A DNA stretch of 63,606 bases, the filler included, from Hausera hauseri (taxonomy: Eukaryota), in assembly GCA_046269625.1 (NCBI GenBank). It is 11 parts of 11 records of this genome, joined end to end, with 100 filler letters (N's around TTAATTAATTAA, not from the genome) between each part and the next. Parts side by side here need not be neighbours in the genome. Positions count along the whole stretch, not along the records: positions 4,275 to 14,647 come from JBJURY010196636.1; 10 more parts are not named here. The stretch is one strand, 5' to 3'. Positions 3,387 through 37,199 of this stretch are shown piece after piece. The notes beneath the pieces are model-generated. The model was not told the origin of the DNA, did not search any database, and saw only the letters and a list, made by a program, of their open reading frames with translations. Made by a program: the position numbers and the translations under genes. The first letter of the stretch is position 1. Each line of letters opens with the position of its first letter.

Positions 3387-4174
3387 ATGGCTGTAAAGTT
3401 ATCGGTTAAACATGTATCTCAGAAAACGTTAAATACAGAGAATTTTGAGTCAAATGAAAGATCGAGATCGAAAATTAGAAGCTTTATCGACGAGAATGCT
3501 GAAGATGCAGTAAAAGATAATCGAGAAGATATAATAAGAATATCGGCCAAAGGCGAATTCATGAATTATATATTTGAAAGAAAACAGAATTTTCACTTAC
3601 TACGGCAAAATTGAAGATGTTTGGTTAACACTACCAATAGTATGGGAGTCGTATTCAAGTCCAATTGTGGGAGAAGTTTTAAATGAAAAGATGTTTGTCT
3701 TCAATGGAAGAGCGATGCTGACATGTGGACAGCTTTGAGGGCAAATAATTATAACGTTGATAATTATATTTATGATTATACTGTAGCACTGGCGATAGAG
3801 GATATCAAAGTGAAAGAAACGACACAAGAAAATTCGATAATTGAGAAGGTACATAGTTTTCAGAACATGGAAAAGAAAATCAAACGTCTCACTACTATAC
3901 TTAAGGACTTCAAAAATCAACTTAATATGGAAAATAAACTGAAAAGAATTTATCAAAAGAAAAATAAAGAAGTAGGGGAATCATTATGCATATTACAAAT
4001 AGATTATTTCACTATCAAAACTCAAATAACAATACTGCAGAAGTCTGTGAATTTAAAGATGATAGAATATAGACGATTAAACTTCGGTATAGAAGGATTA
4101 AAAGATATTGCAAAACGAATTACCAACCCTAACCCAATTCAAATTCAAGCTAAGTCTGAATTGAATGATTACGT
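3387..4174 (+). pseudogene. Frameshifted coding region of unknown function with a coiled-coil-like C-terminus, cut by the contig end
   Basis: Overlapping ORFs 3360-3614 and 3723-4174 with K/E/I-rich composition; no recognised motif. Confidence 0.3.
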
Positions 4175-4274: not shown

Positions 4275-5202
4275 AGTAGCAGATGATACACGATACCAGG
4301 CTAAATTGGAATCTTTACTTGGAGTAAACCATTGCGAGCGAGTAACTACAGAGATACTTTACAAAATTTGGAAAAGACTTTTGATATTTGGACAAGCCGC
4401 ATCTGGATTCTTAGCGATATATTTTCTGATACAAATGATTAAGGTAGTCATCCAAGCAGTAATAAATAGGTACGAAATATTTACATTGACTGGATTTTCA
4501 TGTAAAATACTGACCGCAATTATAACGCATTTTGGAAAATTCTTGAAGGCATATGAAGAAAATAGATGGAAATCGGACGTAGAACGCCATGTCGGCTATT
4601 ATAATCGTAAGCGAAAAGGAAGACCTATATTCTTGCGAAAGCGGAAATTTACAAAACATAATACACGAAGAAATAATTCAGATGATGACAAGCCTAAGGG
4701 TGGAGAAGTACTTCCAGAAATAAACAAACACAAGACATACTCTGTCATCAAAGCACCATTACCCATGTTACCTCCCATCGCTCCATTCTGTGAAGAATGC
4801 GACAAACGATCAATGAGTTTATATCAGACGGAAATCTATAAAAGAACAATTAATGTAGAAGATCCTTATGAAGGAACGAAACGTTACTGGATCCTACGGA
4901 AAATGTGTTACCGACAATCCACAGATGGTTCAAGGATGTTATATTCTACGCGCGAACCTCGGAATATAGAAACTAGATCTACGGTTTGGGGCAACCAAAG
5001 GCTAAAAGCCTTCCAGAATACTGAATTACATACTAACAATCGAGAATCATTAGTTAATACACACGAAACGGAAGGATTTCACGTAGAAAACAACGAGTTA
5101 TATCCAGACGAAGAATTAAGACAATTGTCGGAAAATATAGTATCCTCCCGCAAAATTCGAATCAATGGACTTAAATTTCGGCAATTAAACGTCCAAAAGT
5201 AG
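4275..5202 (+). CDS. C-terminal membrane-proximal and TM region of a chuvirus-like (class III, gB-like) glycoprotein, followed in frame by about 200 aa of basic/unknown sequence
   Basis: KLESLL...ILYKIWKRLLIFGQAASGFLAIYFLIQMIKVVIQAVINRYEIFTLTGFSCKILTAII matches the recalled Jingchuvirales G tail pattern W..F..FG..SAG.L.I..I...IK..I..II.G..L....G.S..LL.A. Confidence 0.72.
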
Positions 5203-5222
5203 CAACAAATTGTTTTAGAACA

Positions 5223-5669
5223 GTGATAGAAGGAAGACATTTCGCCAAAATCACTATCGAAAACTGGGAAGTTTATGCCTTAATCGATACCGGATTCGAG
5301 ATGTCTTACATCAAAAATGATTCAAAACCTCAAACACTGAGAGGTCAATTATACCCGCCGTCTACGGATGATCCAGGAAGTACAGGAGCTTTTGGTCAAA
5401 TCTCACAACCAATGTTTAAATGGAACCCAGAGGTTCAAATAGTTGGACAATTTTTCCATCATGAATTTGCTGTTATGGAACAATTGACCGATGACGTAGT
5501 CCTAGGATGTGATCTACTAAAAAGACTGCCAAATATAGCAATTGACTTACAAACCGGGATGTTGATAGAGATCAGGCCAAATAAAGGCGTGAAAAACGCT
5601 AAGGATAAAAGATTTGGAGAGGTCTGGATANNNNNNNNNNCGAAGATATCCCACCAAAAACAGAAATGA
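5223..5669 (+). CDS. Retroviral-type aspartic protease
   Basis: ALIDTG active site and DVVLGCDLL motif. Confidence 0.9.
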   Translation: MIEGRHFAKITIENWEVYALIDTGFEMSYIKNDSKPQTLRGQLYPPSTDDPGSTGAFGQISQPMFKWNPEVQIVGQFFHHEFAVMEQLTDDVVLGCDLLKRLPNIAIDLQTGMLIEIRPNKGVKNAKDKRFGEVWIXXXXKISHQKQK

Positions 5670-6104
5670 TAATCTATGCCCAGATACAGCAAGACGACGA
5701 TCAACCAGTATATTTTGAACCAAGGGATACGCTAGATCCGAATATATTACTCAGGAATATATTAACAAGAGTACACTCCGGTCGAGTGCCGATCAGGATA
5801 GCTAATAATGCGCAGACTCCCATTAAACTTTATGCTTATACTACTTTAGGAGACACGTATAGAGTATCGTCAATAACTATTGAAGAAAAGTCTTACAAGT
5901 ATGCCAAATTTCCACCTCATGTCGAAACTAAGTTTTCACCTGAGTCTTATTGTCGATTTTACGAATTATTATGCCGATATAAATCGATTATAGCTAAGGA
6001 CGAAAAAGATATCGGTAGAGCGAAAGCATTAAAACTAACTATTCCGTTCAAGAAAAGCCAGGGTCAAACAAGGAAATAGATTTGGAAGACCAGAAGACGC
6101 CAAA

Positions 6105-7364
6105 ATGGTATCCTCCACCACATTCACTGAGACCGAAATAACAAAGGAAGTCGAACGAATGCTAAGGGCCGATATAATTAGGCCAAGCTACAGATCTTGG
6201 TATTCACCAATCCTCATTGTTAAGAAGAAAGGGACCACAAAACATCGATTTTGTATTGACTACAGAGCCCTAAATAATCTTATGATGAAAGATTCCTTTC
6301 CATTAACGTCAGTGAAAGAGGCTTTAGACCGACTCTTAGAAGCAAAAGGGTTTACCACTCTGGACCTACAATCCGGATATTGGTAAGTGGAGATAGAAGA
6401 TGAAGACCGCTATAAGATAGCATTTAAAACACACGATGGTGTTTATGAATTTAATGTCATGCCGTTCGGTATTACTATTGGACCAGCTATATATAAGAGA
6501 ATGATGAATAAACTGTTAATGGGATTGGATCATGCTTTTGCGTACTTAGACGACGTAATGATAGCATCAAGGACCGAAAAGGAAAACTTAAAGGATATCG
6601 AACACACATTGATGAGACTGGAACAAGCCGGATTGAAGTTGAATCCAAAGAAATGCAAATGGCCTCAAAACGCCCTATCCTACCTTGGCTATATAGTTGG
6701 AGAAGGAGGATCAAAACCAGATAAATCATTGCTAAACGAAATGTCAGATTGCATAGAACCACAAAATCAGAAAGAGTTAAGGCACTGGCTAGGACTTTGC
6801 GGATATTACGCAACCCGTGTACCAGATAATTCAAAAATAAATGCACCCTTATATTGTCTACTTAAAAAATAAATTAAATGGAAATGGATAGACATTGAAC
6901 AGAAAGCGTTCGATGAGATGAAGATTTTAACAAGAGAACCTGTTTTACGATATCCAGACTTTAACTTACCTTTTATTATCAAGACAGATGCCAGTAAAGA
7001 AGGCACTGGATATGAATTAGCACAGAAGAGAGAAGACGAAGAACTAGAACACCCGATTGCTTACGGAGTACGTTCCTTAAAGAAGGCCGAGAAAAATTAT
7101 TCCGTTACTGAATTAGAAACTCTAGCCGTAAAGGAAACACTTCGCCATTTTAACGTTTATATACACGGGCAGAAAATTATAATTTTTACCGATCAAAAGG
7201 CCATCACGACTTTAAAGGTCCGAGCAAATAACCCAACATGTAGACTCAACAGATGGATTGAAGAAATATCGAGATACAATATCGAGTTCCAGTATAAACC
7301 AGGAAATAAGCATGTAGATGCCGATGCATTATTGAGACTAAAGACTAAAACAAGCGCAATCTAG
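6105..7364 (+). pseudogene. Gypsy reverse transcriptase and RNase H with in-frame stops
   Basis: SPILIVKKK, RFCIDYRALN, LDLQSGYW, MPFG, YLDD, KTDAS, NYSVTELE, DADAL. Confidence 0.95.
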
Positions 7365-7609
7365 GTAATGAAGAAAAGTCAACTCGAAAAGATAATAGAT
7401 CGCCAATGCGCTCTAACGATGGACAAAGCAATTAAAATTTCAACAGAACAAAGAAAAGATAAGGTTATCCAGCAGATTATAGAATTTGCTAAAAAGGATA
7501 CCATACCCAAGAGACGACAGTTAAAGAAACATTTAAACAGACATGGACATAAATACTGCGTCTTAAACGACAAGGGCAATGAAAATATTTTATATTACAA
7601 ACGGAAAGG

Positions 7610-8700
7610 AAGGAAACTGAGGCTTACATCCCGAAATGCTGATGTCAGAAGGTGACTCATACTTAGCCAGACACATGTCCTGGAAGAAAACGTTAGAAAG
7701 AATACTGAATAAATATTTTTGGCCCAGTATCTATATTGATGTGAAAAATTGGGTAAATGCCTGCAAAGTATGTGCAACTAAACAAAAGAAGACGAAAAAC
7801 TACATAGCTGAACTGAAACCGATTAATGTGCCCGATAGACCTATGCAAGTCATGTCTATGGATATCGTAGGACCGCTTCCGACGACCCACAAGAACAATA
7901 GGTATATCTCAATTTGTACTGATCGATTAACTCATTTTGTTGAGCTGATAGCATTAATTGATCAAAAGGCAGAAACCTTAGCAGAGACCGTTGTAAGAAG
8001 AATAATTTGCCGATATTGACCCCCAGACCAGATACTCACAGATCGAGGAAGACATTTTACAAGTGAACTATTTGAAAAGATAACTAAGATATTCGAGATT
8101 GAACGATTAACAACTACGGCGTATCACCCCCAGTGCAATTAAATAGTGGAGCGAATGAACGCAACCGTCATACGAATACTATCCACAGTAGTTGCCAAGG
8201 ACCAAAAGAATTGGGATGAATTTTTAGAAGGAACTCAGTTTGCTATTAACACCACTCCACACCCAGCAACTGGATTTACGCCATTCTTCAGCATGTATGG
8301 ACGAGAAGCTGTGTTACCCACAGATTTAGGATTGATGCCGAACACAAACAACCTCGAAGATTTAGAGCAAAATTTTGCAGAAATGCTACAAACGCGATTG
8401 CGAAATGCTGGGAAATCACCAAGGACCTATCTCAGGAATATCAAGAGCAGTTTAAAAAGCAGTACGACAAGAAAGCGAAACCGCTTGATTTAGAACAAGG
8501 AAATTGGGTTTATGTGCATTATTCAATAGCAAGGAAAGGCACCTCTTTGAAACTGACTCGTACAGGTAGAGGACCGTACGAAGTTACCCGAGTCACGCCT
8601 ACCACAGTATATATCAACAAAAACGGAAAAGAAGAAGTCGTGTCAGTACAAAGAGTTGTTAAGACGGAGATACGACCCAATAAACGTTACAATTTATGCC
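7610..8700 (+). pseudogene. Gypsy integrase (zinc finger, DDE core, GPY module), frameshifted
   Basis: H...KYFWP...CKVC, MDIVGPLP, TDRG, TTAYHPQC, ERMN, GPYEV. Confidence 0.93.
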
Positions 8701-8738
8701 AACGTGAGAGAAAAACTTCCTCAATAGTTACTAGACCG

Positions 8739-10135
8739 ATATTATACGTTAAAATAGTTTTAGCATTATCATTAATTGCTTCTTATATTCCGAGAGCACA
8801 AACTAAATGGTGGCACGACGAATCTACACTAGAAGATACATACGGAATTCGGAAAGGCGGAGCAAGATTAGAGATTATCAAAACGGAAAAGAAACCAACA
8901 GTCGAACAAAGTCAAAGACAAGAAGGTATAAGATTATTACAATCGATAGCAATTCAGTACTACTCGCCAAACTCCACATACGTTGGATTTAAGGCGCAGA
9001 AACCACACCACGATTTTGGAAGATTCCAAATCGTCTTAGATGATGTAATAACAAAAGAAGCAAAGAATTGTTACGTCGAACCTGGAGATCATATGCAATG
9101 TTGCGACATAGATTTCGGACATACTTACAACCTCACCTATCGTCTGTACCTACCAAACTTATCTAAAATCTACGAAACCAGGCCACCATTTCAGTTAGTT
9201 ATTTCTGCACGGAACAAAAATCATGGAATAGAACCAAACGAAATGTTGCGATCTACCGAACCAGACATACAACTATTAGACGAAAATATCCAGAGAATTT
9301 CGGTTAATAAAGCAATACAATGCATCCAGGTAGACGCCCGGACAGAGTTAACGGTTAGTCCAGAAATTAGTATCGTATTCGAAGCAGCAGTTGGACCGAC
9401 CCCGAAGATAGAATATTGTTCTATTTGCGCAGGTGTACAATGCCCCTGCTGCAAACTGCCTGCGAACCAGAAGTTCAAAATAAAAATCGACTTATACGAG
9501 GTGCGACCAAATAAATCAAGCATACAATTGGAAACTTACTATCCGAAAAATAGGATTTGGAAAATTTCAGTGGAAACCACGACCAAAGAGACGACCAATA
9601 AGGCTAGTCAAACTCTCACAGCAAATAACGTACCTAAAGAGTTGGAAAGTATAATTGTCAAAATTTTCGGCCCACCGGTATAAAATCGTGTTCTTCGTGG
9701 AGAAGAAACAAAGTTACGATATACACAGAAGTTGTCGAACAACATATAATAATCAAATTGTAACGTTATTTAAAAATACTTATCTAACAGTGCAATTTAC
9801 TAAAACCACAATCCGAATACATAGTATAAGTGCACACAAAGAGTAAGCAAAACCAAACAATCACATTACGTACCCTAGACGAAATTCGTATAGTGCCGCA
9901 CTTATATGTAGATAGCGATGATGAAACTACAACTCCGGTTACTACCAAAGCCCCGCTGGGATTAACCGTCTTGCCAATTGTATCCATTGTGGTACTGTCG
10001 ACATTTGTTCTCATTACGTTAACCGCGATTTTTCAATTAGTTACCAAAAATTGTCATTTTAAGCGTCATGAAAATATAGAGCGGGAACTAAGGGAACTGG
10101 GAGATCCCATTGATCCATATGATAAAATAACCTGA
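8739..10135 (+). CDS. Putative type-I membrane protein in frame after integrase (signal-like segment, Cys-containing repeated beta-rich ectodomain, Thr-rich stalk, TM), frameshifted near 9670-9830
   Basis: Hydrophobic ILYVKIVLALSLIASYIPRAQT; paired Cys modules; DETTTPVTTK; TM LTVLPIVSIVVLSTFVLITLTAIFQLV; AATAAA shortly after the stop. Confidence 0.65.
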
Positions 10136-10190
10136 CAATTACAGAACGGGTTATTCTGTCATTTAATAAAGAATTGGTTTTATTTTAAAA

Positions 10191-12659
10191 ATGACCTTTA
10201 TTTCAAGAATAATCCGTATTATTTATTCCTCAGAATCAAAAACAGCGGAACGTCCGAACGACGTAGATTCGACGAACGAGAAGGAAAAAACAATTCCACC
10301 TATCGAGTTAATATCGACAAATTTTTACAGAACCATGCTACTGTGTTCCTTATGAATTCCAATTTGATTTAGAGATACCTAACGAGCTGCACGGAAAGGC
10401 CATCATAAAATACGACCAGGTCCACGCCATACCCAACAACTTAAAAGGAACAACAGAGGAAGATAGAATCGTCTATCTCTATGCTATAAGGGAAGATCGT
10501 GACGTTAGAGCTTATTCATTCCGACAATTGATAAATTTCAAAATCGGTCAAGATTTGTATATCCACTTAGCAGATGGTGAAATCTATTACAGATTACAGT
10601 GTCAAGAATGGATTACACAAAAAGGATGACAGTACAGGTTTAGCACCCTAAAAATCCGAGGCGATGACTTACAAGATAAGGAATTGGAATTTAGAGTAGC
10701 TGCCCTTCCCGTCAAAATAATGATTGAGGTAACAAAAGAGGAAGAGAGGAAAAACATGTTACCACCCTTAGAATTTCGGCATAGGCCGTTAGAAGCGGAG
10801 GTAGCGAAATCCTTGTACTCTTATAGATTGGTGCCGCACGCTAGGAACACTAAAATTATTGCTCTGAGCTGTGGTGAAGGAAATGAAGCGGAAAAAATCC
10901 CGATGGAAATTTCAATCAGGGAAACGGACGGAACGGAAGTATATCACACGATTATTAGCCCGAAAAAACGAGTCAGAGAGACTTTTTTTGACCAAACGGG
11001 AATCCGTAAAGAAAACTTCAAAGAAGGAAGAGATATCAAAATGGTACAAAATGATTTGGCCCATTGCCTGTATGAATGTATCCTTATCGGATATCGAGTG
11101 GAAGAAGCTATATCGTTACTAGAAATTTCTTAGTCAGGAATAGCAGGAATAAGAGAGCATAATACGCATCCACTTATCGCCGAGAAAACAAAGAAATTAT
11201 TACGGGACAGGGACTACCCGATGCCGAGGATTATGGACGCCTACTTTAAAATAATGATAGAAGCGACAACCAATAGTAGGACTAAAATAAGCAATTGTTG
11301 ACCGCGGGCCAGCGTACTCAGTACTTACGAGATGTTTATGCCGGATTATCTTGGGAACACAAATGGGTGCCCCAAGAACCCGAGCATAACTTGATCAGTG
11401 CCACAAACCTAAATCAAATTGATGAGAAATACCGTAAACAATATCAACCCTACAAAATACTCGGAACTGACAATGATCAGCTGCCTAGCACCAGTCAGAA
11501 AGATTCTATAATGCCCCCAGGCAAGGAAGAGGACAATAAATCAGTCTTCAAGATGCCCCAAGTGCAACAGAAGAAACAGAAAATTGATAGGCTACCGCAA
11601 AATACCAAAGGAAAAACTTCCTTATATGATCCCATATTTAAAAGGACACGCAAAATAGATTATATAGAACCAACAACCGAGATAACGCAAAAGGAAGAAA
11701 GGTCCCTACTAGTCAAACAAAAACAAGAAGAAAACATAGTTCAGAAAAGAAAAGGCCTAGAAAGGACTAAATGGTATACGGAAATAAATATTCTTAGGAA
11801 TAGGAACTCGACAGGAAATCAACACTTTGTCATCGTAGGAGACTCACCTAAAATGCTAATAATGACTGAACATTATAGCAAAGGAAAGATCAAAGAAGCG
11901 GCTTTTTACATCACAGTTGCCCAAAAAGGGAAGTATACGAAAACATCTATATATGGGAAAATCTCAAACTAGGAAAATATGTTGCCCAAATTTTCCAATC
12001 AAAGAGAAATGGAAAATTAACGGCGCCAGTGGACAGACAGTTGAAACTTTTGCTTAAGACACAATACCAGAACCACCGAGCAGCTAACCGAATTCCAGAC
12101 CTAGATCACGAGACTATGGCCGATTGGACGTTAGTGGCAGTAAGTTGTGACCCAAGACAAAGCGTCGTGGACCCAAAGCAGAAACGAATCCATGAATACT
12201 TATACCTAGACGAAGAAGGGCTAATATTTGAACAAATTGAGATTACAATCAGAGTAGACTTGGATGATAAAAAGAGGGAAAGAGAAGAAATTGAGTGCTC
12301 AGTCTGTGAGGCTAACCTCCAACAAGAATATGACACTCTGGATAACAAAGATTGAAAACAAATACTGCCGGGAATGCCTAGAAAAGTGGACCCTAGAAAA
12401 TGGTAAGACCACTTGCCCAGTGTGTCGAGCCGAAGCGACCGATTTAAAGTACTTTTCAAATGCAGGATATACAAGAGTGGTACGTATAAAACCTCATTGT
12501 AGCTATGAAATCGAAACCCGACACAATCATACTGATACTGATTCCGGAACTAGTTTACGCCGACGGATAAATTTGTTAAGACAACGCGAGGCTGGCGGTA
12601 CTTTTTCGGATGCAATGGGCACCTCCGAGAATGCCGTTCAGGGAGGAGAAATGTTGTAG
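10191..12659 (+). pseudogene. Accessory ORF with a degenerate DEDDh (REX4-like) exonuclease fold (about 10850-11340) and a C-terminal RING finger (about 12295-12430)
   Basis: IIALSCGE...EISI...GTEVYHTIISPKK.V.....TGI...VQNDL...ILIGY follows the REX4 pattern. CSVC...YCRECLEKW...KTTCPVCR is a RING with a frameshift at the C-x-H position. Confidence 0.65.
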
Positions 12660-13242
12660 AAACGGAATAAGCAGAAAATTGACGAACAAGCACGTCTGTA
12701 AATAAATCATTTCCTCGCAGTTTAATTGTAGATACTTATTGATTTAGAAAAATTTTTGTACTAGCTAAATTAGAAATAGTCCGTATGTTGGAATTTAGAT
12801 AATCATATATGTAATTAGAATATCAATAAAAGAATAACAAATTTAAAAGAACAAAACGAAAATTAATCTATAAAAAGGAAATTGAACGAGAAGGCTGGAA
12901 TATATAAACAGAGACAAAAATGGACAGAGGACAGAGAGCGAACAGCTGAAAACGAGAAGGTCAAAGATTTCAAAGTGTTGCTTAACCTATTGACAATATT
13001 TTTACTGAGTGACTTATTGTGTTGTATCCGTTCAGTACCGGTAATTGTGGTTTATTAAATTTTTGTACGATATAAATTTTCTTATAGTTTTTCATTGCCC
13101 CATGAGGGTAATTAGACTTCCCTAAGTTTTAAAATCACTTTCAATTTATATAGTTAAAAGAGGATCTTATAACCAGCACGGCACAGCATTCAGTCAGTAC
13201 AAGCATTTTAAAATTTTATCAATGCACAATCTGTCTACTTCA
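12652..13242 (+). repeat. 3' LTR of the large Gypsy element
   Basis: PPT AGGGAGGAGAAA directly before TGTTGTAGA; the putative end TCTACTTCA is an imperfect inverted terminus; internal TATATAAA. The right boundary is less certain. Confidence 0.65.
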
Positions 13243-13449
13243 TTACGGTAGACCTTACCTGTAGATAAAGACTAACTTCAACGTAATTATTGTTATATCG
13301 TGGGAGACGCATAAGGTCCACCCCAATATATAACACATGTGAATATCTCATAAATTGCGTATTTTTATTAATTGTATTTTGTTCTTCTAAACATGCCATA
13401 TAGCGAATTTGTTGTTGGTCAAGTGGTCTCAAAGAAATCTTCTGGTAAA

Positions 13450-14418
13450 ACTTTTAGAGAAATTTAGGAAGAACTAAAAATTACATTCCAATCAGTTTTC
13501 TTTTTGCAAAAATTTTTTGTGAATCGGGTCTATCAAAAAGGAAAGCTGGATCAAGTAGAAAAAGAAAAACAAGTAAGAGAGATAAAAGGCATTTAAAGAA
13601 GACGGTTAAGAAAGACCGAAAATAAGCACCAGAAATCTTTCCACTCAATTAAGGTGAAGTAACAGGGACAGAGATATCATACACAACAGTCCAAGGATGT
13701 GACATGGAATTAAAGAAGAGGAAGACTTTNNNNNNNNNNTTTCGTAAAGATCGTTTAGAAAACTTTACAAAGAATGCAGATTATCTTGGGCCATAGAATA
13801 TCGTCATTGTACATATAAAAACAGTTAATCAAAAGTGATTTTCTCGGATGAAAGGAAATTTGTTTGTTATGGTAACGAGGCAAGATTATGACTTTGGATG
13901 AAAGACAAAGAGAGGTTGCTTGAAGAATGTATTGTTCAAATGGAGAAGTTTCCTAAATCGGTCATGTTACGGGGATGTATAATAGCACATTGGGTTGGTA
14001 GATTGAAGGTTATTGAGAAAACCATGAATAGAGAAGATTACATCGCTAATTTCAAAAAAAGAATTGCAGTGGACAGTACATGATTATTTTGATAGAGATT
14101 CAATATACTGTATTTTCCAGCAAGACAATGCTAGATGTCATGGAGAAAAATCCGAACAATCATTCCTCACGATAAGAGGTTTAAATGTATTAAAGTGGCC
14201 CGCTAAAACAGCTGACTGTAACCCAATGGAGAATCTTTGGAATTTTATGTCAAAAACTGTCAGGTGAAACTTTTGATGGCAAGAATGTCTTAATAATCAG
14301 GTTGCACCATTTGTGGAACAGATAAATTAGTCAAAAACTTTGTGCGCCACTAATTTCAAGCATGAATCGCAGATTGGAAGAAGTCATCAACATGAAGGGT
14401 GGAGTGACCAAATATTAA
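13450..14418 (+). mobile_element. Tc1/mariner (DD34E-type) transposase pseudogene
   Basis: VIFSDE, FQQDNARCH, WPAKTADCNPMENLW, C-terminal KGGVTKY. Confidence 0.9.
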
Positions 14419-14747
14419 TCATCCTTATCATATTTGTTTGTTTGACATATATTCCTAAATGTTCATTTGTAAATATAACCCTTATCATGTAAAATTATAA
14501 AATAAAGAATTTTGTCTGAATTTTCAGCTTTGTATGAAAATGTTGCATCAATCTGTATCATTGTGGTTTTATGTTTTAGCATATTTTACATATATAAATC
14601 AATACAGTTTTTCAAATGTGTAAAGTTGTTATTTTTCGCACCCAAATNNNNNNNNNNNNNNNNNNNNNNNNNNNNNNNNNNNNNNNNNNNNTTAATTAAT
14701 TAANNNNNNNNNNNNNNNNNNNNNNNNNNNNNNNNNNNNNNNNNNNN

Positions 14748-15287
14748 TTAATTGCAAGGTTTTCTTCCGAACTTCCAAATCAGAAGAGCCCAAAATTCGT
14801 AAAATGTCCATAACAAGACATCGAAGATCTTTTTCTTAGTTTTCTCGAAGTCATATTAAACAGTTTAGTACAATTAACTTAACGTTATTGTCACTTTCCT
14901 TTAAAATTAGATCAATATGACAAGTAGCGACAGCTTTAATAGCAGCGACAGCATATGTTAACGTAATTAGTGTACCAGCAGCTTCATATCTAACCGTCGG
15001 ACTGCTGGATTGTAGAAGATTGTATACACAATGAATGAACCTTCCGCGTTCTTGTGGATTTGAATGGCAGACTTTGTAAATCGGTTCAACAATAATCTAC
15101 TGTAAAATATCACCAATGAAATTTCTTGACTTGCATGAAGTAGCATCATAAAAGCATTTAGTTTACATGATGCATCTTGTTCTTGTTCACGAAATTTGTA
15201 AATTTTTTTAGGAGCATCGTGAATGAGAAAATTAAAATTCCTATACATTGCAAAAATAGCGAGCACGGCATTTCGTCTAACATGAAA
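14748..15287 (-). pseudogene. COPB1: Coatomer subunit beta fragment
   Basis: [11 protein letters not shown]...[14 protein letters not shown], then after a frameshift [53 protein letters not shown]. Confidence 0.92.
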
Positions 15288-16362
15288 TCGTGATTTTAGA
15301 ACGTTATCTAACGAAACGTTCTTAAACCCTTCATTCTGTCGAATATCGTCGTAATTCGGAATGTTAATTCCAACTGGCATGCCGCTGTTGGCGAAATTGA
15401 TTATATCCACTGATGTTAAATGGGGTTGAAGAAAGTTGTTCTTTTCGTATTCTATCGGCCAAAGGAGTACTTTAAGAATGGTTGGAGCCGATACGACGAG
15501 TTTGTTAAATTTCTCCGACATTTTCTTATTGATGACGGTAATGAACGCTTCGAATTCTTCATGAACACCGAGCGGATAACGATATGATTCAATAAACCCG
15601 ATATAGTTTTGCATAACTGTTTCTTGTCTTTTATCCTTATTCTCAATCCGAGTTAGTGGGCATCAGTGGAACCAGTTCGAAAACTGTCAATATAAAGCTT
15701 TAATTCAACACTTATTTTGCTCCTATGACGCTTGTCTAACAGTGAAATTTGTTATTCCGTTGGAAACAGACATGAAAACTCGGGTATTGTACGGACTTAT
15801 ATTTTCATTCAAATATTCCTGTGCAATATTCGCATCATTCATCGTACAGTTGTGCGAATAATACGCACTGATTCCTTCTTCATCCAAGCCAAATTGTTTA
15901 TATTTATTTGTTAACCAATAAATTGTCGGTTTGATTATTTTATAAATCGTCATGACAAGATCGTCTTCCTGGTGTGCTTTAGTTGCCGCAATTATTGAAT
16001 AGAATTTCTCCTCGTCGATTCTTGGAATAAATTTCGAATCACCGAATGATTTGTAATTTCCCAAATTGTCGTAAATCATTACAAAATAATTCAAAAAATT
16101 CCTGAAATCCACTTCATAACCAAGTGAGTGAACTGAACATTTTATATCATCAGGCGACTGCTTTCTAAATATTCACTGAGCAATTATAGAGACCAGGCGA
16201 CTCTGGGGAGCATTGCACTAAATCAATAAGTCCGCCATACCATCCAGCCTTGATTAAAGAATGCGCATAATCTTGTTCTTCTGTAGATAAATTTTGAAAA
16301 GCTACATTACAGTCAAGGAAATATATAGGAAATTCTTCGTATAAAACAAAAACTTTATCCAT
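15288..16362 (-). pseudogene. DPP3: Dipeptidyl peptidase 3, N-terminal half, apparently intronless, with stops and frameshifts
   Basis: [43 protein letters not shown]...[25 protein letters not shown]. Confidence 0.93.
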
Positions 16363-25799: not shown

Positions 25800-28700
25800 A
25801 TCCACATGTTGACTCCCCCGGAGTATGCTCACCTTGTCGACTGGTGGGGGAGCTCGCCGGGATACGGTTTTGCTGTGAGTAACAGCCAAGCCGTGTCCTG
25901 GGGCGAAGAAGCTGCAACTGGTGTTAAACCAAGAATATGAATGAAGATAAAAGAAAAAATTGCCAGGAAATTCGGAAACCTGGTCCCGGCCCCTTGTCAT
26001 TTATGGAGAGAGGTGACGGGGGACGGAGCTCTCTAGAGCACATCACTCGATCTCTCCACCCACGACCCGAGACTCAATGCAGTCCATTAAGCGTCCTGTC
26101 CAACGAGGCGCGTCCTTCACATGGGGTGTTGTCTGGCCTTCTTGATGAAGGCCCCAATACTTCAGATAATCACCAGGACCGAAGACACTTCACCTATAAT
26201 GAAAGAGGTGCAAAAAGAGCGGCCTGGTCAGTGGAGGAAAAAAGTGAAATTTATTGGTGTGTCTTATACGCAAGACACAGAAAATTCCCAAAAAAAGGAA
26301 CCACGAACAGAGTACTAGAAATGATACTGAGAAGAGGTAAAATATGTAAGGAAAAGGTTGAAAGTACACCAGTGTGTAGATTTAGTAGTATAGCCACCAA
26401 TATTAAATTGGGTAAAACAAAGATAAGCAAGGAAGAAATAAAAAAAATTGAAAATGACGTTGAAGCTTATATGGAGGAATTAGAGTTAGATGAAGGTAAG
26501 AGTAAGCACGATAAAGATGAACAATCTTGGAGATGGTCATACGAAAGAAATTTATTTTTAATGGAATGTGTGTATGTGGGTGAATTTTTTAGTGAAAAGA
26601 TGCAACAAAATGAAACATGGAAATATTATTTGGAAAAAGAAAAAATAAAAGTGAATGATATTATGGAATTTTTCTTCCATAAACAATATAACAATATAGA
26701 TAGGAAAATTTTGATTGCGCTAAAGCAATGTATATTAAATTTTAAAAATGAAAAGAAAAGAAAAATAAGAAAGGAAAAAGATACATTACCTACACCTGAA
26801 GAATTAGACGAGATCAAGGGGAAAGCAAAAGAAAAAGTTGAGAAAACGGAAATATCAGCGACATTGATACAAGAGATAAAAAGAATAAAAGAAAAACAAT
26901 ATAAAACACAGAAGGGAAAAATAGGTATGGGAGCAAAACGTTATACAGAAAAAGAAGAAAGAACAAAAATACCGGAAAAAGAAGAAGAAATGGGTTTGGA
27001 AATGTATGTTCATGAAGAGCCACCCGTTCTAATTGGGGATCAGCATGAAGATCTGAATGAAACAGAGAGAGATTCAGAATCTATGGAGAGTACAGTGGAT
27101 GAGGAAGAAATGGACAGAATAGTCATGATGGAGGAGGAAAAGCATCAGGTACAAAATAGACAGGAGATTGAAACTGATGAGTGAATGTTAAGGAGAATAG
27201 CTAACTACCGAGCAGAAGACCTAATAATGGGTATGGAAAGGCGAAAAAGAATAAAGAAGATTAACAATTGGTTTGGAATGAATAAATACATTGGGCAAGT
27301 GAATAGAGTACTACTAAGAATTATTCCTGAAAATTGTGGACTAACTGAATTAAATAGGCTATATTATGCCTCAAGTAGAGCAGTGGAAGAAATGATGAAT
27401 GGAGGAATTTATCGAGAAAACATATCAAGAAAAAGAAAAGGAAAACAAAAATCACCATGGAAGATTAGGTTGGAAAGAAATATAGAAAATCTGCGTAGAG
27501 AAATATCACTGTTGACGATGTTTAGACAAGGACAAGTCATCAATGAGGAAAAGAGGAAGATAGCCCAGAGAATGATTAATAGAGAAAGAATTACAAGAGG
27601 GGATAAAATGATACACGCAATTGGAAGAAGGAAGTTATTATTAGCAGCAAAGGCAAAAAGACTGAGACATTATTTAAGAATAGAAATGGAGAGAAGACAA
27701 AATAAAATATTTAAAGAGGACCAGGGAAAGTTCTATAAAGAACTGAGGGGAAATCAGAAAATCATTGAGACAACCCCAAGAAAGGAAGAAGTCGAAAGAT
27801 TTTGGAGGGATATATATGAAGATGAAGTACAGCACAATCATGATGCCCAGTGGATTACAGATATAAAGAACAACCCAGGAAATAGAGAATGGATGGAAAT
27901 GCCGTGGAGAAGAATAGAGGAAGACGAAGTAAAGAAAATAGTAAGGAAGACTAATAACTGGAAAGCCCCTGGAGTGGACAAGGTGCAAAATGTGTGGTTG
28001 AAAAAGATAACGGTGCTTATTAAACTACTCACCGAGTGCTTTAACAGGATAATGGAAGGAAGAGAAGAAATGCCTGAATGGTTTACGAAAGGTGAAACTG
28101 TACTTATTTCAAAAAATGGAGATACTGAAGACCCAAGTAAGTACAGGCCAATAACCTGCCTTCCAACTATGTATAAAATGTTAACAGCTGTGCTCACACA
28201 AAGGGTAAATAGTCATCTTCAAAATAATAACATAATTAGTGAGGAACAAAAAGGAAATAGTTTGGAATCGCTGGGAACAAAAGAACAGTTATTAATAAAT
28301 AGGATGGTTTTAGAAAACAGCAGGAAAGCTCAGAAGAATCTGTGTATGACATGGATCGATTATAGAAAAGCTTATGATAGCGTACCTCACTCCTGGCTTA
28401 TAGAAATAATGAAAATATATAAAGTAAATGAAAAAGTCCGAAGGTTTTTTGAGAGAGCCATGCCAAATTGGAAGGTAAATCTTAAACTAATACATAAGGG
28501 AGGAATAATGAGAATAGAGAACATCAAAATAAAAAAAGGTATTTTTCAGGGGGATTCCATCTCCCCGTTGCTCTTTGTAATGGCCATTAATCCGCTGAGT
28601 GTACTTTTAAATGATCTGGGTAATGGATATAGGGTAAACTCCAGAAAAGAAAAAAAGCCAAAACAGATAACCCATCTCTTATACATGGATGATTTGAAAT

Positions 28701-30340
28701 TATATGCCCCAAATAAAGAAGAGACAGAAAAGCAAATAGAAATAGTCAAAAGGTTCTCAAGAGACATTCGAATGCAGTTTGGGTTGGATAAGTGTGCATT
28801 TGTAGAATTGAGGAAAGGAAGAAAAGTGCACTCGGAAAACATTCAAATTGAAGATACAGAAATAAAAGAACTCGAGGGGATAAATACCTACAAATACCTC
28901 GGCATAGAAGAATCGGAAAAAATAGAAAACGAAATTATGAAGAGAAAATTAAAGAATGAATTTGTAAAAAGACTAAAAATGGTTCTCAAGACGGAATTGA
29001 AACCAAAGAACAAGATAGAAGCAATAAGAACTCTGGCTGTACCGGTACTTACTTATAGCTTTGGGGTATTAGATTGGTATCAATTTGAAATTAATGAACT
29101 AGATACGCTAATTAGAAAGCTTCTACATGCCCATAAGATGATTTACAAAAACCAGTGTGTGGCAAGGATGTATATGCCCAGAGAAGAGGGGGGAATGGCA
29201 ATACCATTAATTGATGAGATTCATAAAAAAGAAATAATTGGAATATCTGAATATGTGAAAGGAAAAGGAACAAAATACATAAGATGGGTGAGAGACCACG
29301 AAGAAGAAAAACCATCAGTTACATCAATTAGAAAGAAAGCGGATGACTACTTGAGAAATATGGAATTTGAGGGTGCAGTGAACACTGAGGTTAGAGGAGA
29401 AGATTTAAAAAAGAGAATAACTATTATAAAGGAAAAATACAAGAAATATAGAAAATTAAAAAATGATCAAGAATGGAAACAACATAAACGTGCTGGACTT
29501 TTCAAACAGGAAGTATTGGAGAAGTCTTATATACACAAAGAAAAGACAATAGAGGCAATTAGTAAGGGGTATTTAAGGTTTGAAGATGAGAGAATGGTAC
29601 TGGCAGCTCAAGATAGAGGGTTGAGAACCAACTGGTCAAAGAAACATTTAGAAAAGAAAGGAGAGACAGACAGGTGCAGGCTGTGTGATAGTGAGGTTGA
29701 GACGGAGATTCACATATTGTCGGGGTGTGAGGTTCTGTTGAAGTTACATTTTTATACGGAGAGGCACAACTCGGTCTGCAAACTGTTACATTACAAACTC
29801 TGCAAAAGATATGAGATCCCACTTCAAACAAATAGTCATAAAAATCATCAAGCGCCATCAATAGTAGAAAATGAACTAGTACAGATATTATACGATTACC
29901 CCATACCTACAGGAGCGGTAGTACCTTGTAATAGACCGGATATAGTTGTAATCGATAAACAAAGCAATAAATGTTACATAATTGAGGTGGGAGTCCCGTA
30001 TGATGGAAAAGTGGCAATGTATGAGAGAGAGAAAGAGATAAAGTACCAACAATTAAAATATGAAATATTGAGGATGTGGCAAGTTGAGGAAGTGGTGGTC
30101 ATTGCGGTTGTTGTAGGGACACTGGGTACAGTAAAGAAAAGTGTAATAAAAAGTTTGAGTATGTTACCCTTCGAAGTAACAACAAAAGAAATAGTAATGG
30201 AAGTTCTTACGAAAAGTATCAAAATTCTGAGAAGAGTTTTGGGAGCATGAAATGACCTCAGCCTTTGAATCAAGGTTTGATTCCGGTTGAAGGAATTTTT
30301 ATGTACCTCTAAGTAGAGAAAATTAAAAAAAAAAAAAAAA
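25800..30340 (+). mobile_element. Near full-length RLE-type non-LTR retrotransposon (R4/Dong-like) with a poly(A) tail
   Basis: Structured 5' UTR, a single reading frame, a short 3' UTR and A16 at 30325-30340. Confidence 0.9.
25937..30250 (+). CDS. RT and restriction-like endonuclease polyprotein, with one in-frame TGA at 27182-27184
   Basis: WKAPGVD, YRPITCL, DYRKAYDSVPH, GIFQGDSISPLLF, HLLYMDDLKLY, YKYLG, CRLC...HILSGC, RHN, RPDIV, IIEV, EK..KY. ORFs 25937 and 27185 are in the same frame. Confidence 0.93.
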
Positions 30341-31589: not shown

Positions 31590-31985
31590 TTAGTGTCCCC
31601 TAGTACTTTATGCATTAGTTCTTAGAACGTGCCAGGGGCTGCTGCTATACCGAGTGGCATCCTGTTGAAACAGAATGTTCTAATTTGGTTGAAAACGCCG
31701 TCTTCGGTTTGAAGTCTTCCTCCAGCTGAACTGGTTAATATGTTTTCCCTATATCGATTGACGTGAAAAACATGGTCCCGTATAACCTGTCCAATATCTC
31801 CACCATGTTAGGCATGGGGAATGCCTGCCGTTCCGTGATAAGATTCAGGTGTCTGAAGTCCAGTCAGATTCTGAGATTGTTCTTTTCTTTCGTCCATACT
31901 CATATCATTGGTATATTCCATGCTGAGTTGCATTTCATGATAATGTCATTTTCCTACAGGTTTTGGATGGTGTTAGAACATTATC
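31590..31985 (-). pseudogene. Gypsy RT fragment
   Basis: LDFRHLN...AFPMPN..EILDRL, KTAFST, FNRMPLGIAAAPGTF. Confidence 0.85.
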
Positions 31986-32995
31986 ATAATATTTAAATGA
32001 TAGCATCGTGGATCGGAACCACGCTCTGCTACCATTTGTTGGAAATACATGACGTACTTTATTTAAAGAATCCGTTATGTCATTAATTTTATCACCCTGA
32101 ACGCTATCCTTGATCCCCCGTGTTCTTATATACACGGAACTATTAATTATAGACTTTCTCTTATTTTGTTCCTCCTTTGATATCATCTCAAATCTTGTCC
32201 CAGCTCCCATGAAACTCAGCCCCCAATCTTCCATAACCTTCCCAAAGCCCTTATTCAATATATAAAAATATAAAAAAACATTTAAATTAATTTTCTCACC
32301 ATACTTAGCCATTGTTGACGGAGTGCTGCTCTCCGGGGGATTCTCTCCACCATTAATTTGGCCTTGAACATACAAACGGATTTTATCAGTCATACATACA
32401 TCATGACCCCTGGCCGGGTCCATCAAACCAAAAAGGCAACAAAAGTAACTGATAACAATATTATTAACGTGACGCACAAATACCTTCTTAACATCACCAT
32501 TCTTTAAGTCCAGAATTATTGGAGTTGACTGTATTTCCTTGGAGTACTCTGAAATTTCTTCATAAACCCTTTTACTACACTCATACCAATATAATCGGTT
32601 ACAGTTATCCCCGATTGGTACTACCATGCTTCGATGGCTATACGTGACGAAAATAGGTTGACCATATTCGTCTTTCAATTTGACGATCAGCAGATTAATT
32701 GGAATAGTCAATAGCTCTTGACGTTGTTGGATAAATTCCACTGATTGAAAATGATACATTTGTTTTCGTAAATAGAACATTGGGACAGTTTTGATCGTCT
32801 ATATTTTTGAGGCCTCTCCTGGCCTGAATTTCGCAAACTTTTTGGTGAGGAGCCAGAGGCATGGCCCTCGAACTCGCCCGTATCTATTAATAGTTCATTT
32901 TCTTGAAATTTGTTTATATTCTTCATGAAATTCAGTTTCTTCGATTTCGTCCATAACAGGACATTTTGGTCAATCATTGAAATTTTCAATTCCAT
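31986..32995 (-). CDS. Orphan ORF of about 330 aa, apparently intronless, with one frameshift, running into the RT fragment
   Basis: ORFs 32708-32995 and 31935-32780; protein-like composition; no recognised family. Confidence 0.4.
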
Positions 32996-33049
32996 AATTT
33001 TATTTCAATTCAATATTTATTGAATTCCTTAGCTGCCTAGCAGCTTATA

Positions 33050-33195
33050 TTATTTCTTATTATCGCTGTTGATGGCAAAATATTGGAAGAACTGCATTTA
33101 AGCTGTACGACGATGTTCCAAAAACAATCGAGAATTTTCGGGCTTTGTGCTCTGGTGAAAATGGATTTGGGTACAAGGGAAGTAAATTCCACCGT
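33050..33195 (+). pseudogene. Cyclophilin-type PPIase N-terminal fragment; its start is repeated at about 33283-33312
   Basis: [32 protein letters not shown]. Confidence 0.9.
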
Positions 33196-34259
33196 GAAAA
33201 ATATAATTATATATCGATATTCATATAAATTTATATAAGTGGGAATTCCCACAAATTCAAGTCTTTTCTAAAAACGGTTCAAACTTTCTTGATATCGCTG
33301 TTGACGGCAAATATATAAATTATTATTGCTCTTATCTATTTTGCAATCGGTTGTCATTACATCTTGCGAACTATCTCATTTTCGTTCCAGCTTTATATCG
33401 TTTTGTATAAAGACTTGACGTTGTTTCAAACATCTTTTCAATTTTATTCATTTCTTCAACGAATCGTCTAGTTTCGAAAATCGACTGGCAACCTCCTGAT
33501 GCGTTCGATACCATTCTTTTACTGGAACTGCATCAAAAGAATCTGAACTGCTTCGGATAAAAAACACAATATTGAGAATTTTCAAACATGCTTTCTTTGA
33601 CAGCTTTGTATTTCTTTAAATTTTTTCTTCGCCCTATACAAAGATTAATCGGATCAATTTGTTCGACTTTCATTTTGTTTAACGTGTATTTTCGAATTTT
33701 CGCTTCTTCTTTTACTTCTTTACCGAATTCCGTTCCAGCACCAAATGCTTGTGGTTCGATAACTTTTGCCTTTTGACTTCGATCTCGTTGAACAAACATT
33801 TCTTTAACGCTTAAGTTTTGATCGAGGCTCCCATCATTAGTAAATTGCAAAATATCAATACGTTTTTCACAATCGTGACTACGGAATTTCACAAATATTT
33901 CTCGGTTATACTTTTTATAAAATTCATGATTAACATTATTGCTTGGTGCAACGATTATAGTACCAAACACCCACCGGTGCCCTCTGACGTAATACAACTA
34001 TCATGAGAATTCGTTTTTGGTTTTCTCTAACTAAAACTGTTACTTCTCATCACTCGTCCCCATCATCATTGGCAAATTTTGTCCATTATGACTAGAAAAG
34101 TTATTGCTTAACAAATCATTACCACTCATCAATGCATGAAGTGATTTCAAATGAAATTTTCCCGGATCTTGTACTTCCAGTCGCTTCCACCGATGGCGGT
34201 TTAAATCTCCGTTGAATATCGTCGATGAGACTTTCCGATTTGGACACATCTATCTCGAA

Positions 34260-34740
34260 TGTTGTCATATAGAGATAAAAATATTCATGCAATTATAAAA
34301 CAATAACGACCGTCTACATCTTACTACTCTCGGTGAACTATGATTATTGTCATCTTTCAGTCGTCTGAACCCTGCCAGGGATCATGCTTCCAATATTCTC
34401 CATGTTTTGTTTTTACATCACACACACCTACTTTACAATTCCAACCCCCCAACAACTAATATTTAAACACAACATGCGCAATCAAATATACATGCCTATA
34501 TACATATATGCAATTACATCTATATATACACACTATTTACATCCCTTCCTTTATAACTTTTCATGCTTCCCGGATTACCCAACTAGTCAGTCGGGTTCTA
34601 ACATTTCCCCCTCCTTGGGGTAATCCGGTCTTTAAATATATCACAATCCACCCAATCTTCTAATTTCTCATCGATCCTGCACATTTTATTCACAGGTCTT
34701 GTCATTATCTCGGACCCGATTTTTAATTCGACTACTCGAA
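34260..34740 (-). mobile_element. Bel/Pao 3' end: integrase tail, PPT and LTR (34260-34603)
   Basis: RVVELK...RPVNKMC; PPT AAGGAGGGGGAAA; TGTTA...CAACA termini; homologous to 1535-1806. Confidence 0.82.
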
Positions 34741-34840
34741 NNNNNNNNNNNNNNNNNNNNNNNNNNNNNNNNNNNNNNNNNNNNTTAATTAATTAANNNN
34801 NNNNNNNNNNNNNNNNNNNNNNNNNNNNNNNNNNNNNNNN

Positions 34841-35704
34841 GATAGAAACCAGTAGTTGTTTACGTCCTCCACCAACGAGTACGGATTCGGTTAAGTCCGT
34901 TAAAATGTTTATTCTATGAAATGCTCCATAGAGTTGCGGTTTGCATTTGGCAATAGTAGATCTTCCATCAATGTTTTGATAGAAACAGTGTTTTGAAAAA
35001 TCCAGATTTCGAGCCAATAATTCATCAAAGGCAAAATACGTAACACTGACATGGCGTGTACGCGAAATATGAACATCTGCGTTTACTTCACATGTCCTTA
35101 AGACTAATGTAGCCGTTTTCTTGACGTATTCACACAATTCCAGTTCCGTTTCCATCAATGAATCGTAAGGTATAATATAATAGCGGATGACTGCTTCTGA
35201 CTTAGTCCACTTTACTATAATATCAGATTCCGCATCGGATAAAAGGTCCAATTTTTCACCAACTGTAACATGTTTACCTAGCCGTAGTCGTTTTTCGTGT
35301 ACATTGACTGATTGAAAACTCCGTGCATGAGCATCAGCTATAGATTTAAACTGCATTTCAATGGGATTTGGGTGTATTAGTTTCATACGGTAGTTTGAAA
35401 AATAAGCATAAACCGAGAAATTTTCTCGCGAATAATTGCAAAGTGTATATCGGTTATTGTGTCGGATAGCCCGCAAACCACTTGAAATAGGGTACGTTTC
35501 TTGTCGGGCAAAGTAAATACCACTGTTCTGACGTATTGTCACTGGTGACAATGTAAAAGTGCATTCCGTCAAAGCCACTTTCCAGACTACTTGGCGTAAA
35601 TCGACCGGGCGGTCCAAGTGCATGGTAAACTGTTGAGCTGTATTGTCATTAACGTCATGTAATAATGATCTATTACTATCAAGTACCAAGTAAATGCTGC
35701 TCAT
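34841..35704 (-). CDS. Polinton minor capsid (penton) protein, truncated by the contig end
   Basis: IYLVLDSN.S....DNT..QFT..L..PVDL...WKVALTE and INILTDL.E..LVG....LL. Its ATG overlaps the integrase stop (ATGA). Confidence 0.8.
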
Positions 35705-36751
35705 TGAATCTGTGATGCAAAAATCCAACTTGGTGCAGTGTATCCGTGCAACTTGACGACATATTGTTTATTCGAAACTTTGCCACGTAAACGTAGAATT
35801 TCCTGAATACGATACACATCGGGTTTTTCGGACAGTACCTGCAAAAACTTTCGTAGAATTTACCGCGTATTTAACGTAACATGACAGGTGTTTGTTTTGT
35901 GTTGATTGCCGAAATGCGGAAAACCTCGTCGTTCCAGTTCTGATTGAAATTTTTAATGAATAGAGTCGTACTTATTTTCGAAATACGTACATAATCACCA
36001 ATTTTATATTTTGGGCGTTTAATTGTCTGTATTCTGTTTTGATAAAGCCACATGTCCAAATCATCGATTACGTCAACTGGCCGTAATCCACTGATGCCAC
36101 GATGTGCCGAATGATTGTATGCATGAATAATATCCGACAGTACATCTCCCCAGCGTTTGTTGTTTTTCTTCGTAAAGAATTTGTTTAGGCGACCGCACAA
36201 TGTTCGATTAAGTCGTTTAATAAGTGCAGCATTTACTGTGAAAACACCGAGTAGTGATTTACGCCGAACCGTTTCAAAACCGCTGCAACGTGGGTGTTGT
36301 AGAATTCCTTACCGAAACTCGTTTGTAAATGCTTCGGTTGTTGTTGTTGTTGTTGTTGTTGTATCAGTGTCTGAACAGCGTCGGAAATCTCTTTACCGGA
36401 TTTAGATTTCACCGCAATTTCACGTGCAAAACGACTAAACACATCAACGCATGTCAACACGTACCGATACCCATCGTTAATGCTGGCGTACGGAATCACT
36501 TCCATCAGATCCATTTGCCATACATTATTTACTCCGGCAGCACGGTATGCACGAGTTGGGAACCGCCTTCTTATTGGTTTGTTTAGGCCGTATGCTAACT
36601 GTTTCCCGAGCCAACGTTGGGTCTGTTGCCGATTCTGTTTGACAGTCTTTGCCAGTTTGGTGACGCCCGTATACCCGACGGGATGACGCGGGCTGAATTA
36701 CACGTCGCCCATCGGTGTTGTCGTCGTCGATGGTGCCGGTTTTGCTAGCAT
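35701..36751 (-). pseudogene. Polinton retroviral-like integrase with a C-terminal chromodomain-like region
   Basis: WQMDL...NDGYRYVLTCVDVFSRFA, K.LQT..GKEFYN, YNHSAHRGI, YKIGDYVRISK, NWNDEVFRI, YVVK..GY. Confidence 0.92.
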
Positions 36752-36872
36752 TGAAACAATTAGAACGAAACGTAAATGAAAGATAGGGTAAACTTTGGCA
36801 AAATTATGAATAACATGCATCCATATCGCCGAATCACCATATACTTACTATTTTTTACTTACTATGTTTATA

Positions 36873-37199
36873 CTATGCTGCTGTAGAACCAATGAATCCG
36901 CCCAGTAATGACGTGACAATTGGTAGAATTGCACCAAGGAATCCGCCGTCTTGCTGGTACATAACCTCTCGTTTCTGTTGTTTACTACGGACGTTGGCAA
37001 GGCCAATGAGTCGTTTTCGGTACTTTAGTAAATTCCGCTTTCCAGTACCCATGCCAACGTGATTCACAACAATATTCTATAAAATTTTCATCAAATCATC
37101 TATGGCAAATTGTGGAAATGATCGCAGCATGTTTCGCTTATGTCTCGTAGGTGCCTTGAGCAAAGCAATAAAGTACGGTTAACTACATTTAAATCGCAT
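36873..37199 (-). pseudogene. Small Polinton/adintovirus core (X-like) protein
   Basis: Basic protein ending QQDGGFLGAILPIVTSLLGG (QxGGFL adenain-site-like motif plus an amphipathic helix). Confidence 0.7.

Follow-up and report, generated by a model that had tools for sequence, protein, structure and literature searches.

We analysed a stretch of 63,606 nucleotides from Hausera hauseri (GCA_046269625.1), hereafter the window, in which unrelated contigs are strung together by 100-base linkers of the pattern N44-12nt-N44. The studied element is part of the contig at positions 4275–14647, where a Gypsy copy occupies 4275–13242 on the + strand. With a probability of roughly 0.6, this copy is a broken, 5'-cut member of a Burro-like Gypsy lineage, in which Gag, a gB-type fusogen, Pol and a membrane protein with Fn3-type domains would be encoded in one frame, and the Fn3 protein would be the attachment partner of the fusogen. 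The two halves of this reading differ in strength. The Gag-Env-Pol-Fn3 architecture of the lineage is very probable; the attachment role, drawn by analogy, is tentative and stands slightly under even odds among the functional options.

The modules of the copy are arranged on the + strand in the order env tail, protease (PR), spacer, reverse transcriptase (RT), RNase H (RH), integrase (IN), Fn3-type membrane protein, DEDD-fold gene, RING, polypurine tract (PPT) and long terminal repeat (LTR). A previous account made from the DNA alone (the sequence-only reading) had seen such modules on one strand, with a type-I membrane protein and an exonuclease-like domain behind IN, and each of them was recovered where it had been placed, the RING weakly and below cut-off. 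The pol order PR-RT-RH-IN of Ty3/Gypsy elements (Metaviridae) is present according to Pfam, and a PPT and a TG...CA LTR of Ty3/Gypsy type are present at the 3' end only. Position 4275 is a contig end that truncates the copy, so the absence of gag and of a 5' LTR reflects the assembly. The same account had held that the complete element is larger than the 9 kb seen, which agrees with this contig end and with the Gag of a relative, P0131 (described below). The upstream contig (to 4174), separated from the Gypsy contig by a linker, had no match to P0131. With 8 in-frame stops and some nine shifts of frame from one homology segment to the next, a shift at a 10-N gap left uncounted, the copy is dead.

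The 5' end of the copy (4276–4590, +) encodes the C-terminal part of a fusion glycoprotein of gB/chuvirus type (Monjiviricetes), the rest of which lies beyond the contig end. Pfam assigned this tail to PF24664 (E 5.4e-15, nucleotides ~4300–4566), and a transmembrane segment (TM) is located at 4408–4464 (hydrophobic window 2.19); a PDB sequence search with the tail gave no match. The tail is 34% identical (E 9e-14) to the env tail of P0131, an intact natural protein of 3,735 residues in a single open reading frame (ORF). P0131 consists of a capsid, a CCHC zinc knuckle, a signal, a whole env (PF24664, E 1e-91), a TM, PR, RT, RH, IN, another signal, Fn3-like repeats and a last TM, that is to say, one frame runs from Gag to the Fn3-TM part. 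Its pol parts are all colinear with the window. P0131 thus has the Burro trait of a single polyprotein in which env is placed in frame after gag and ahead of PR; in the window, env and PR adjoin but sit in different frames.

The region behind IN (8724–10135, +) continues the frame of the IN C-terminus and encodes a type-I membrane protein, delimited by colinearity with the protein P0121 and by the fold of the P0121 model. It comprises (i) an internal signal sequence (8724–8800); (ii) three Fn3-like domains (~8913–9182, ~9264–9536 and ~9661–9880) in an ectodomain that carries cysteines and N-glycosylation sites; and (iii) a Thr-rich stalk, a TM (9977–10033) and a short tail finishing in YxxI. 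The gene is broken near 9660, 9790 and 9827. A full HMMER scan with the ectodomain, which took in 1.84 billion representatives, returned 4 proteins, of which one is real, the intact P0121 (479 residues, 37% identical, E 3.6e-46); the other 3 are repeat-rich proteins and were judged spurious. In tblastn, P0121 is colinear with 8727–10132 across two frame changes, to its last residues, and the pieces behind IN therefore form one gene.

The AlphaFold model of P0121, built from two-sequence input with a mean predicted local distance difference test (pLDDT) score of 46, contains three beta-sandwich domains, a stalk and a TM. Domain 2, which is the best resolved, matches Fn3 modules (VIA Z 8.8, root-mean-square deviation 2.2, 84 residues), at low model confidence. 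Foldseek matched the model at E 2e-5, with 64 of at least 500 PDB matches reaching E 0.001, and nearly all of the matches listed are Fn3-type. Matches in a viral structure library were Fn3 and membrane proteins. The protein is thus predicted from the model to be a receptor-like Fn3-type protein rather than a fusogen. Sequence-level searches gave less: a word-index protein search with the ectodomain yielded 0 of 1,464 candidates, the ESM Atlas held no usable match for the window ectodomain and, for P0121, leads below 0.9 only (mostly fn3), PDB sequence searches with P0121 and with query A1 had no match, and a metagenome scan with query A1 returned nothing.

The same module order was found in intact relatives. 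The window RT lacks close relatives (~45% identity at best among the 120 proteins listed and the 80 loci kept), and the elements with the same module order are only 43–45% identical to it in RT. L001 and L002 are the best two of the 80 RT loci. Each has an intact ORF of PR, spacer, RT, RH, IN, a second protease, ankyrin, a signal, three Cys-bearing Fn3-like repeats and a TM, followed by ORF2 and ORF3; Pfam Fn3 matches in both are weak (E 0.006–0.13, none above cut-off). Of the 102 Pol proteins (POLs) in which RT and IN share a frame, only 4 (L001, L002, P0011 and P0043) have a TM in frame behind IN, and these account for 4 of the 5 most identical to the window; P0131 is a cluster-mate of P0011. 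The tree was built from 30 of 103 rows, namely the four, the window and 25 chosen for high identity or nearness in fast trees, and includes no Burro sequence. The four TM-bearing POLs group together as a clade (100/98), the window is their sister (91/94, or 86/89 with 12 further rows removed), and FastTree on RT-RH gave a similar, weak grouping. Shuffles equalled the Fn3 modules of P0011 in 0 of 300 cases and those of P0043 in 2 of 300, and 7 of 11 domain-level Fn3 comparisons beat shuffles. Homology of the Fn3 modules between the sub-lineages is moderately suggested by these comparisons.

In the relatives, the second aspartic-protease-like domain and the ankyrin repeats (E 1e-11) lie in the same frame between IN and the Fn3 module (L001:3300–5200; L002:3700–5600); in P0131 and P0043, the duplicated protease lies ahead of PR instead. 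Protease duplication looks like a clade trait. In L002, a 3'-open ORF (10906–11517) with a weak ubiquitin/SUMO-like match (PF11976, E 0.095) occupies the place of the window's RING. PF11976 is a family named for Burro in the available text of PMC6431247. Neither ankyrin nor PF11976 was found in the window parts, and a ubiquitin-like stretch was seen by eye, with no Pfam match, in P0131.

Behind the Fn3 gene, the window carries a separate, broken gene (10191–11290, +) composed of an N-terminal domain and a DEDD-fold exonuclease. The stretch 10822–11286 matches DnaQ/DEDDh structures weakly (4 matches, best E 1.1e-3), and the gene is homologous to L002 ORF2 over 259 columns (E 1.7e-6), with the N-terminal domain common to both. 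L001 and L002 are the only 2 of 80 loci matching the window exonuclease; this control is small, since sequence to 3 kb past RH is available in just 14 of 81 loci. In both elements ORF3 is ISG20/REX4-like (E 3e-16) and ORF2 is its paralogue, so that dead and active exonucleases of this family stand in tandem, open in both elements and sharing an unnamed N-terminal domain (L001:6861–9923; L002:7268–10374). The window gene scored 29.4 bits with the ORF2 profile and 13.3 bits with the ORF3 profile. In the ExoI motif Asp-x-Glu, the first Asp is replaced by Ser in the window gene and in ORF2 of L001 and of L002, whereas the motif is intact in both ORF3s. Lacking the first catalytic residue of the Asp/Glu motif, the window gene appears to be a catalytically dead pseudo-nuclease, a gene thus found behind the Fn3 module in three elements. 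Since the window gene is nearer to ORF2 and shares its N-terminal domain and the same Ser, the loss of catalysis is likely ancestral rather than decay of this copy. A word-index protein search with the exonuclease block, covering longer proteins only, gave 0 of 1,836. A single-sequence model of 10312–11286 reached pLDDT 31, so its fold search was uninformative.

According to the proposed mechanism, the polyprotein would thread the endoplasmic reticulum membrane at two internal signal sequences, placing Env and the Fn3 ectodomain outside and leaving Gag and PR-RT-IN cytosolic. Signal peptidase and the element's own protease would free both glycoproteins in equal amounts, and both would be carried by the budding particle or the producer cell, where the Fn3 protein may serve as the attachment or adhesion partner that the gB-type fusogen needs for cell entry. 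Because it is fused to the structural polyprotein, the Fn3 protein would be made in step with Env. The 3' genes (the pseudo-nuclease and RING of the window; the active ISG20/REX4-like nuclease and the ubiquitin-like ORF of the relatives) would be expressed from an RNA of their own, and their products probably target the ubiquitin or RNA-silencing defences of the host. A receptor-binding glycoprotein separate from the fusogen is likewise found in herpesviruses (gD/gH-gL with gB) and in paramyxoviruses; their two-protein entry serves here as a functional analogy rather than a claim of homology. Extended to a deep unnamed invertebrate Gypsy clade of complex, retrovirus-like agents with herpesvirus-like two-protein entry, a captured receptor-like Fn3 glycoprotein released from the same polyprotein as the fusogen, and nuclease/pseudo-nuclease counter-defence, the reading becomes more speculative and has rather less than an even chance.

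The architecture could be integral while the Fn3 protein acts on the producer cell as a host-manipulating accessory, such as a decoy cytokine or growth-factor receptor, an immune modulator or a superinfection block. This is less probable than an attachment role and is the strongest of the alternatives. Cytokine-receptor ectodomains are among the best fold matches, as are herpesvirus and adenovirus membrane proteins, but a match to an Fn3 fold does not tell one function from another. The YxxI tail end occurs in both the window and P0121, and the genes and domains nearby (ankyrin, ubiquitin-like, RING, nucleases) are of regulatory kinds, as they are in Burro; however, the nuclease genes are separate ORFs, whereas the Fn3 protein is placed in the structural polyprotein, in step with Env. 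Between L001 and L002, the Fn3-TM part is 36% identical and RT-RH 91% at the same silent distance. Such fast change would be the pattern expected of a host-facing surface protein, and an accessory role fits it too.

Several observations weigh against the attachment-partner reading and its architectural basis. The P0121 model derives from two sequences, with domains 1–2 at pLDDT 51–69 and domain 3 at 31–36 (mean 46). Env and Fn3 stand on one molecule in the window and P0131 only, since L001 and L002 are 5'-cut and P0043 starts without env. The window is a long branch, FastTree on RT-RH-IN placed it elsewhere, and its sister support was never starred. When profiles of the whole ectodomain were compared with L001/L002, the score lacked significance (E 0.16), the four second-domain comparisons did not beat shuffles, and the domain-level matches may reflect generic Fn3 likeness. 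The RING was seen in none of the relatives. Summed contig depth, which is not a copy number here, drops from thousands to 55–535 over 10157–12578, and three X2 contigs diverge at 10162. Descriptions of most gB-type errantiviruses include no such partner, and attachment itself is argued from topology and analogy.

The depth drop and the X2 contigs leaving at 10162 indicate that many copies carry a different 3' block or lack it. We read this block as a variable cassette, which fits the other genes found there in L001 and L002. The extra ORFs nevertheless very probably belong to the element, as natural intact relatives with the same cargo indicate. Four-fold sites of L001 and L002 differ by 56–74%, yet the cargo frames stay open over 372–461 aligned codons. 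In the window, ORFs of at least 100 codons cover 84% of 9684–12659, whereas 500 Markov simulations averaged 7% and none reached 84%, and the A content and skew of the cargo resemble those of pol. The element is contained in two sequencing runs (21,609 and 1,498 contigs aligned, all 30 bins covered), of which X1 may be the source sample. Of the 16 pieces listed, five diverged contigs (about 81–88% alike) from the two runs cover 8671–9071, which bridges IN to the ectodomain, 9026–9468, 9638–9886, 10198–10592 and 10263–10776. Other contigs show small length differences at three of this copy's frame breaks, which are therefore lesions of this copy.

These data bear on the very improbable alternative that the cargo is foreign to the element, through nested insertions, host gene pieces captured in one copy or an assembly chimera. 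No second LTR or target-site duplication was found on the contig 4275–14647, and among the pieces listed none bridges 10135–10191 or joins the RING to the LTR; however, the same modules stand in the same order in elements just 43–45% identical in RT, and the cargo region contains no introns. The low depth of the 3' block and the RING, with no counterpart in the relatives seen, would suit foreign cargo, whereas the RING frame terminates within the LTR start. The sequence-only reading had itself named nested insertions as what would overturn it; no terminal repeats of a nested element were found in 8700–14647. The alternative applies mainly to 11290–12659. The two envelope-like genes that had been claimed reduce to one, the gB-type fusogen tail: type-I topology, cysteines, N-glycosylation sites and the post-IN position usual for env would suit a second true envelope fusogen, but the post-IN protein has no fusion-protein family match and no internal hydrophobic fusion segment, and both its model and the fold matches listed show Fn3/Ig-like beta-sandwiches in tandem; this is the least probable reading of all.

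That this is a complex, cargo-rich Gypsy lineage is supported, as is the comparison with Burro; "Burro-like" is used here by description, Burro sequences being absent from the tree. In the available text of PMC6431247, Burro/GYPSM1 of planarians is a giant polyprotein whose env stands in frame after gag and before PR. The present lineage resembles it in this arrangement (P0131) and possibly in a dUTPase-like PR-RT region and in regulatory cargo, with ankyrin repeats and a weak PF11976-like domain in L001/L002. By contrast, an Fn3 membrane protein, a DEDD exonuclease and a true RING after IN are not named in that text, and the BIR, BCL2 and MATH domains of Burro were not found in P0131, L001 or L002; the 591-bp LTR of the window copy is a further listed difference. 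The consulted portions of PMC11410931 and PMC10175614 mention Burro by size only.

Similarly, the available part of a 2026 survey (PMC13524379) describes GAG-ENV-POL errantiviruses with HSV/gB-type env from Nematoda, Bryozoa and Platyhelminthes, an arrangement called polyphyletic. The lineage shares with them a Ty3/Gypsy pol and a gB/chuvirus-type env upstream of it (the PF24664 tail in the window, the whole env in P0131); their intact ORFs are lacking in the decayed window copy. The statement of the sequence-only reading that typical Gypsy elements are gag-pol, sometimes with a single env after IN, overlooked these errantiviruses and the in-frame env of Burro (PMC13524379, PMC6431247, as far as their available text goes). 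In that part of the survey, three ORFs were annotated in candidate regions of at most 10 kb, other arrangements were not searched, and no second glycoprotein or 3' accessory genes are reported. It states the entry route of gB errantiviruses as open, because herpes gB needs partner glycoproteins (PMC13524379). The Fn3 protein is a concrete candidate for such an entry partner in the same frame as a gB-type env, and the intact natural P0131, L001 and L002 make the question testable.

The Juno/Vesta LTR elements of bdelloid rotifers also have a DEDD exonuclease and small TM proteins behind pol and a dUTPase between PR and RT; their nucleases are DEDDy, with residues intact, and replace env (PMC5408684, available text). 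Here, by contrast, the family is ISG20/REX4-like, and a conserved dead paralogue stands alongside env and the Fn3 glycoprotein. A Gypsy element with an Fn3 glycoprotein or a second attachment protein was not found in the literature searched; Repbase, Grohme 2018 and subscription papers, outside its scope, may annotate the Burro post-IN region. Of the lineage that the sequence-only reading took as possibly undescribed, the POL-fused Fn3 glycoprotein and the conserved pseudo-nuclease thus stand as undescribed in that literature; env between gag and pol (Burro, GAG-ENV-POL errantiviruses) and DEDD cargoes (rotifers) are known. The results suggest that Burro-like giant polyproteins form a wider clade with a shared 3' module, which gag/pol/env surveys limited to 10 kb would miss, and the conserved dead exonuclease beside an active one is a possible retroelement counter-defence.

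The remaining parts of the copy are as follows. The linker at 4591–5200 (+) is stop-free in the env frame and has no family match; comparison with the linkers of P0131 and P0043 gave nothing significant, and a zinc-finger remnant between env and PR was tried and is unsupported. The aspartic protease (5235–5627, +) has a DTG motif, matches PF13975 (E 2e-4) and RVP (above cut-off) in Pfam, and is colinear with P0131. The PR-RT spacer (5642–6061, +), dUTPase-like by analogy with Burro, has no Pfam match and scored 29.1 bits with the spacer profile of four relatives (0 of 200 shuffles reach this); the profile weakly matches the dUTPase-bearing POL P0035 (8.8 bits, 0 of 200 shuffles) and misses a free dUTPase elsewhere in the window. 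RT (YLDD) and RH lie at 6135–7346 (+; RVT_1 E 2.8e-32, RT_RNaseH E 1.7e-29), with in-frame stops at 6384 and 6870. The broken IN (7624–8723, +) comprises a zinc finger, a DDE core and a C-terminal domain (rve E 1.6e-14, Integrase_H2C2 E 3e-13) and is colinear with P0131, P0043, L001 and L002.

A coding-like stretch (11286–12295, +), stop-free in frame 0 and then in frame 2, follows the pseudo-nuclease gene and is possibly its continuation. It has no family or structure match (11972–12352 was blank in a PDB sequence search), the continuity test was not significant, and 11286–11420 as the last exonuclease helix is unsupported (241 of 500 shuffles as high). The RING finger remnant (12296–12659, +) is split over two frames, with 6 of 8 zinc ligands visible, all Cys. 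It matches zf-RING_2 in Pfam (E 1.4e-4), its 22.5 bits falling short of the cut-off of 27.3, and in the PDB every one of the 20 matches at E<=1 is a RING protein, the best with E 0.004; its support is limited to this copy and local contig cover near 12400. The RING frame crosses the PPT (12640–12651, +), 12 purines directly 5' of the LTR TG, and stops 8 bases into the LTR. The 3' LTR (12652–13242, +) is 591 bp long, begins with TG and ends with CA, has 6 of 8 terminal bases inverted-complementary and carries TATA- and polyA-like motifs; the coding signature and AT skew fall there. A Tc1/mariner transposase remnant (DDE_3) at 13641–14411 forms the 3' flank of the copy.

Four of five viral-contig scans were empty, and L081 came from the fifth; this gag-pol-env element of ordinary type lies outside the clade and serves as a contrast only. 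It is a single ORF of 2,387 residues (L081:948–8111), errantivirus-type, with env after IN. Elsewhere in the window, 1–1600 is the 3' end of a BEL/Pao element (Peptidase_A17, DUF5641), and 3390–4172 is a decayed ORF of coiled-coil character at a contig end, with no match to a family or to P0131. Fragments of dipeptidyl peptidase III and coatomer/adaptin share one intron-less frame at 14967–16172 (- strand) and are possibly captured or retroposed host pieces. A near-intact non-LTR retrotransposon at 25928–30250 has a 1,021-residue RT ORF, with a restriction-like endonuclease motif seen by eye at its end. Several contigs in 31900–49200 carry genes that by eye resemble those of Polinton/Maverick elements, namely DNA polymerase B, integrase, protease and capsid-like genes; in addition, a dUTPase (39566–40027) and a RING (40765–41157) were confirmed by Pfam.

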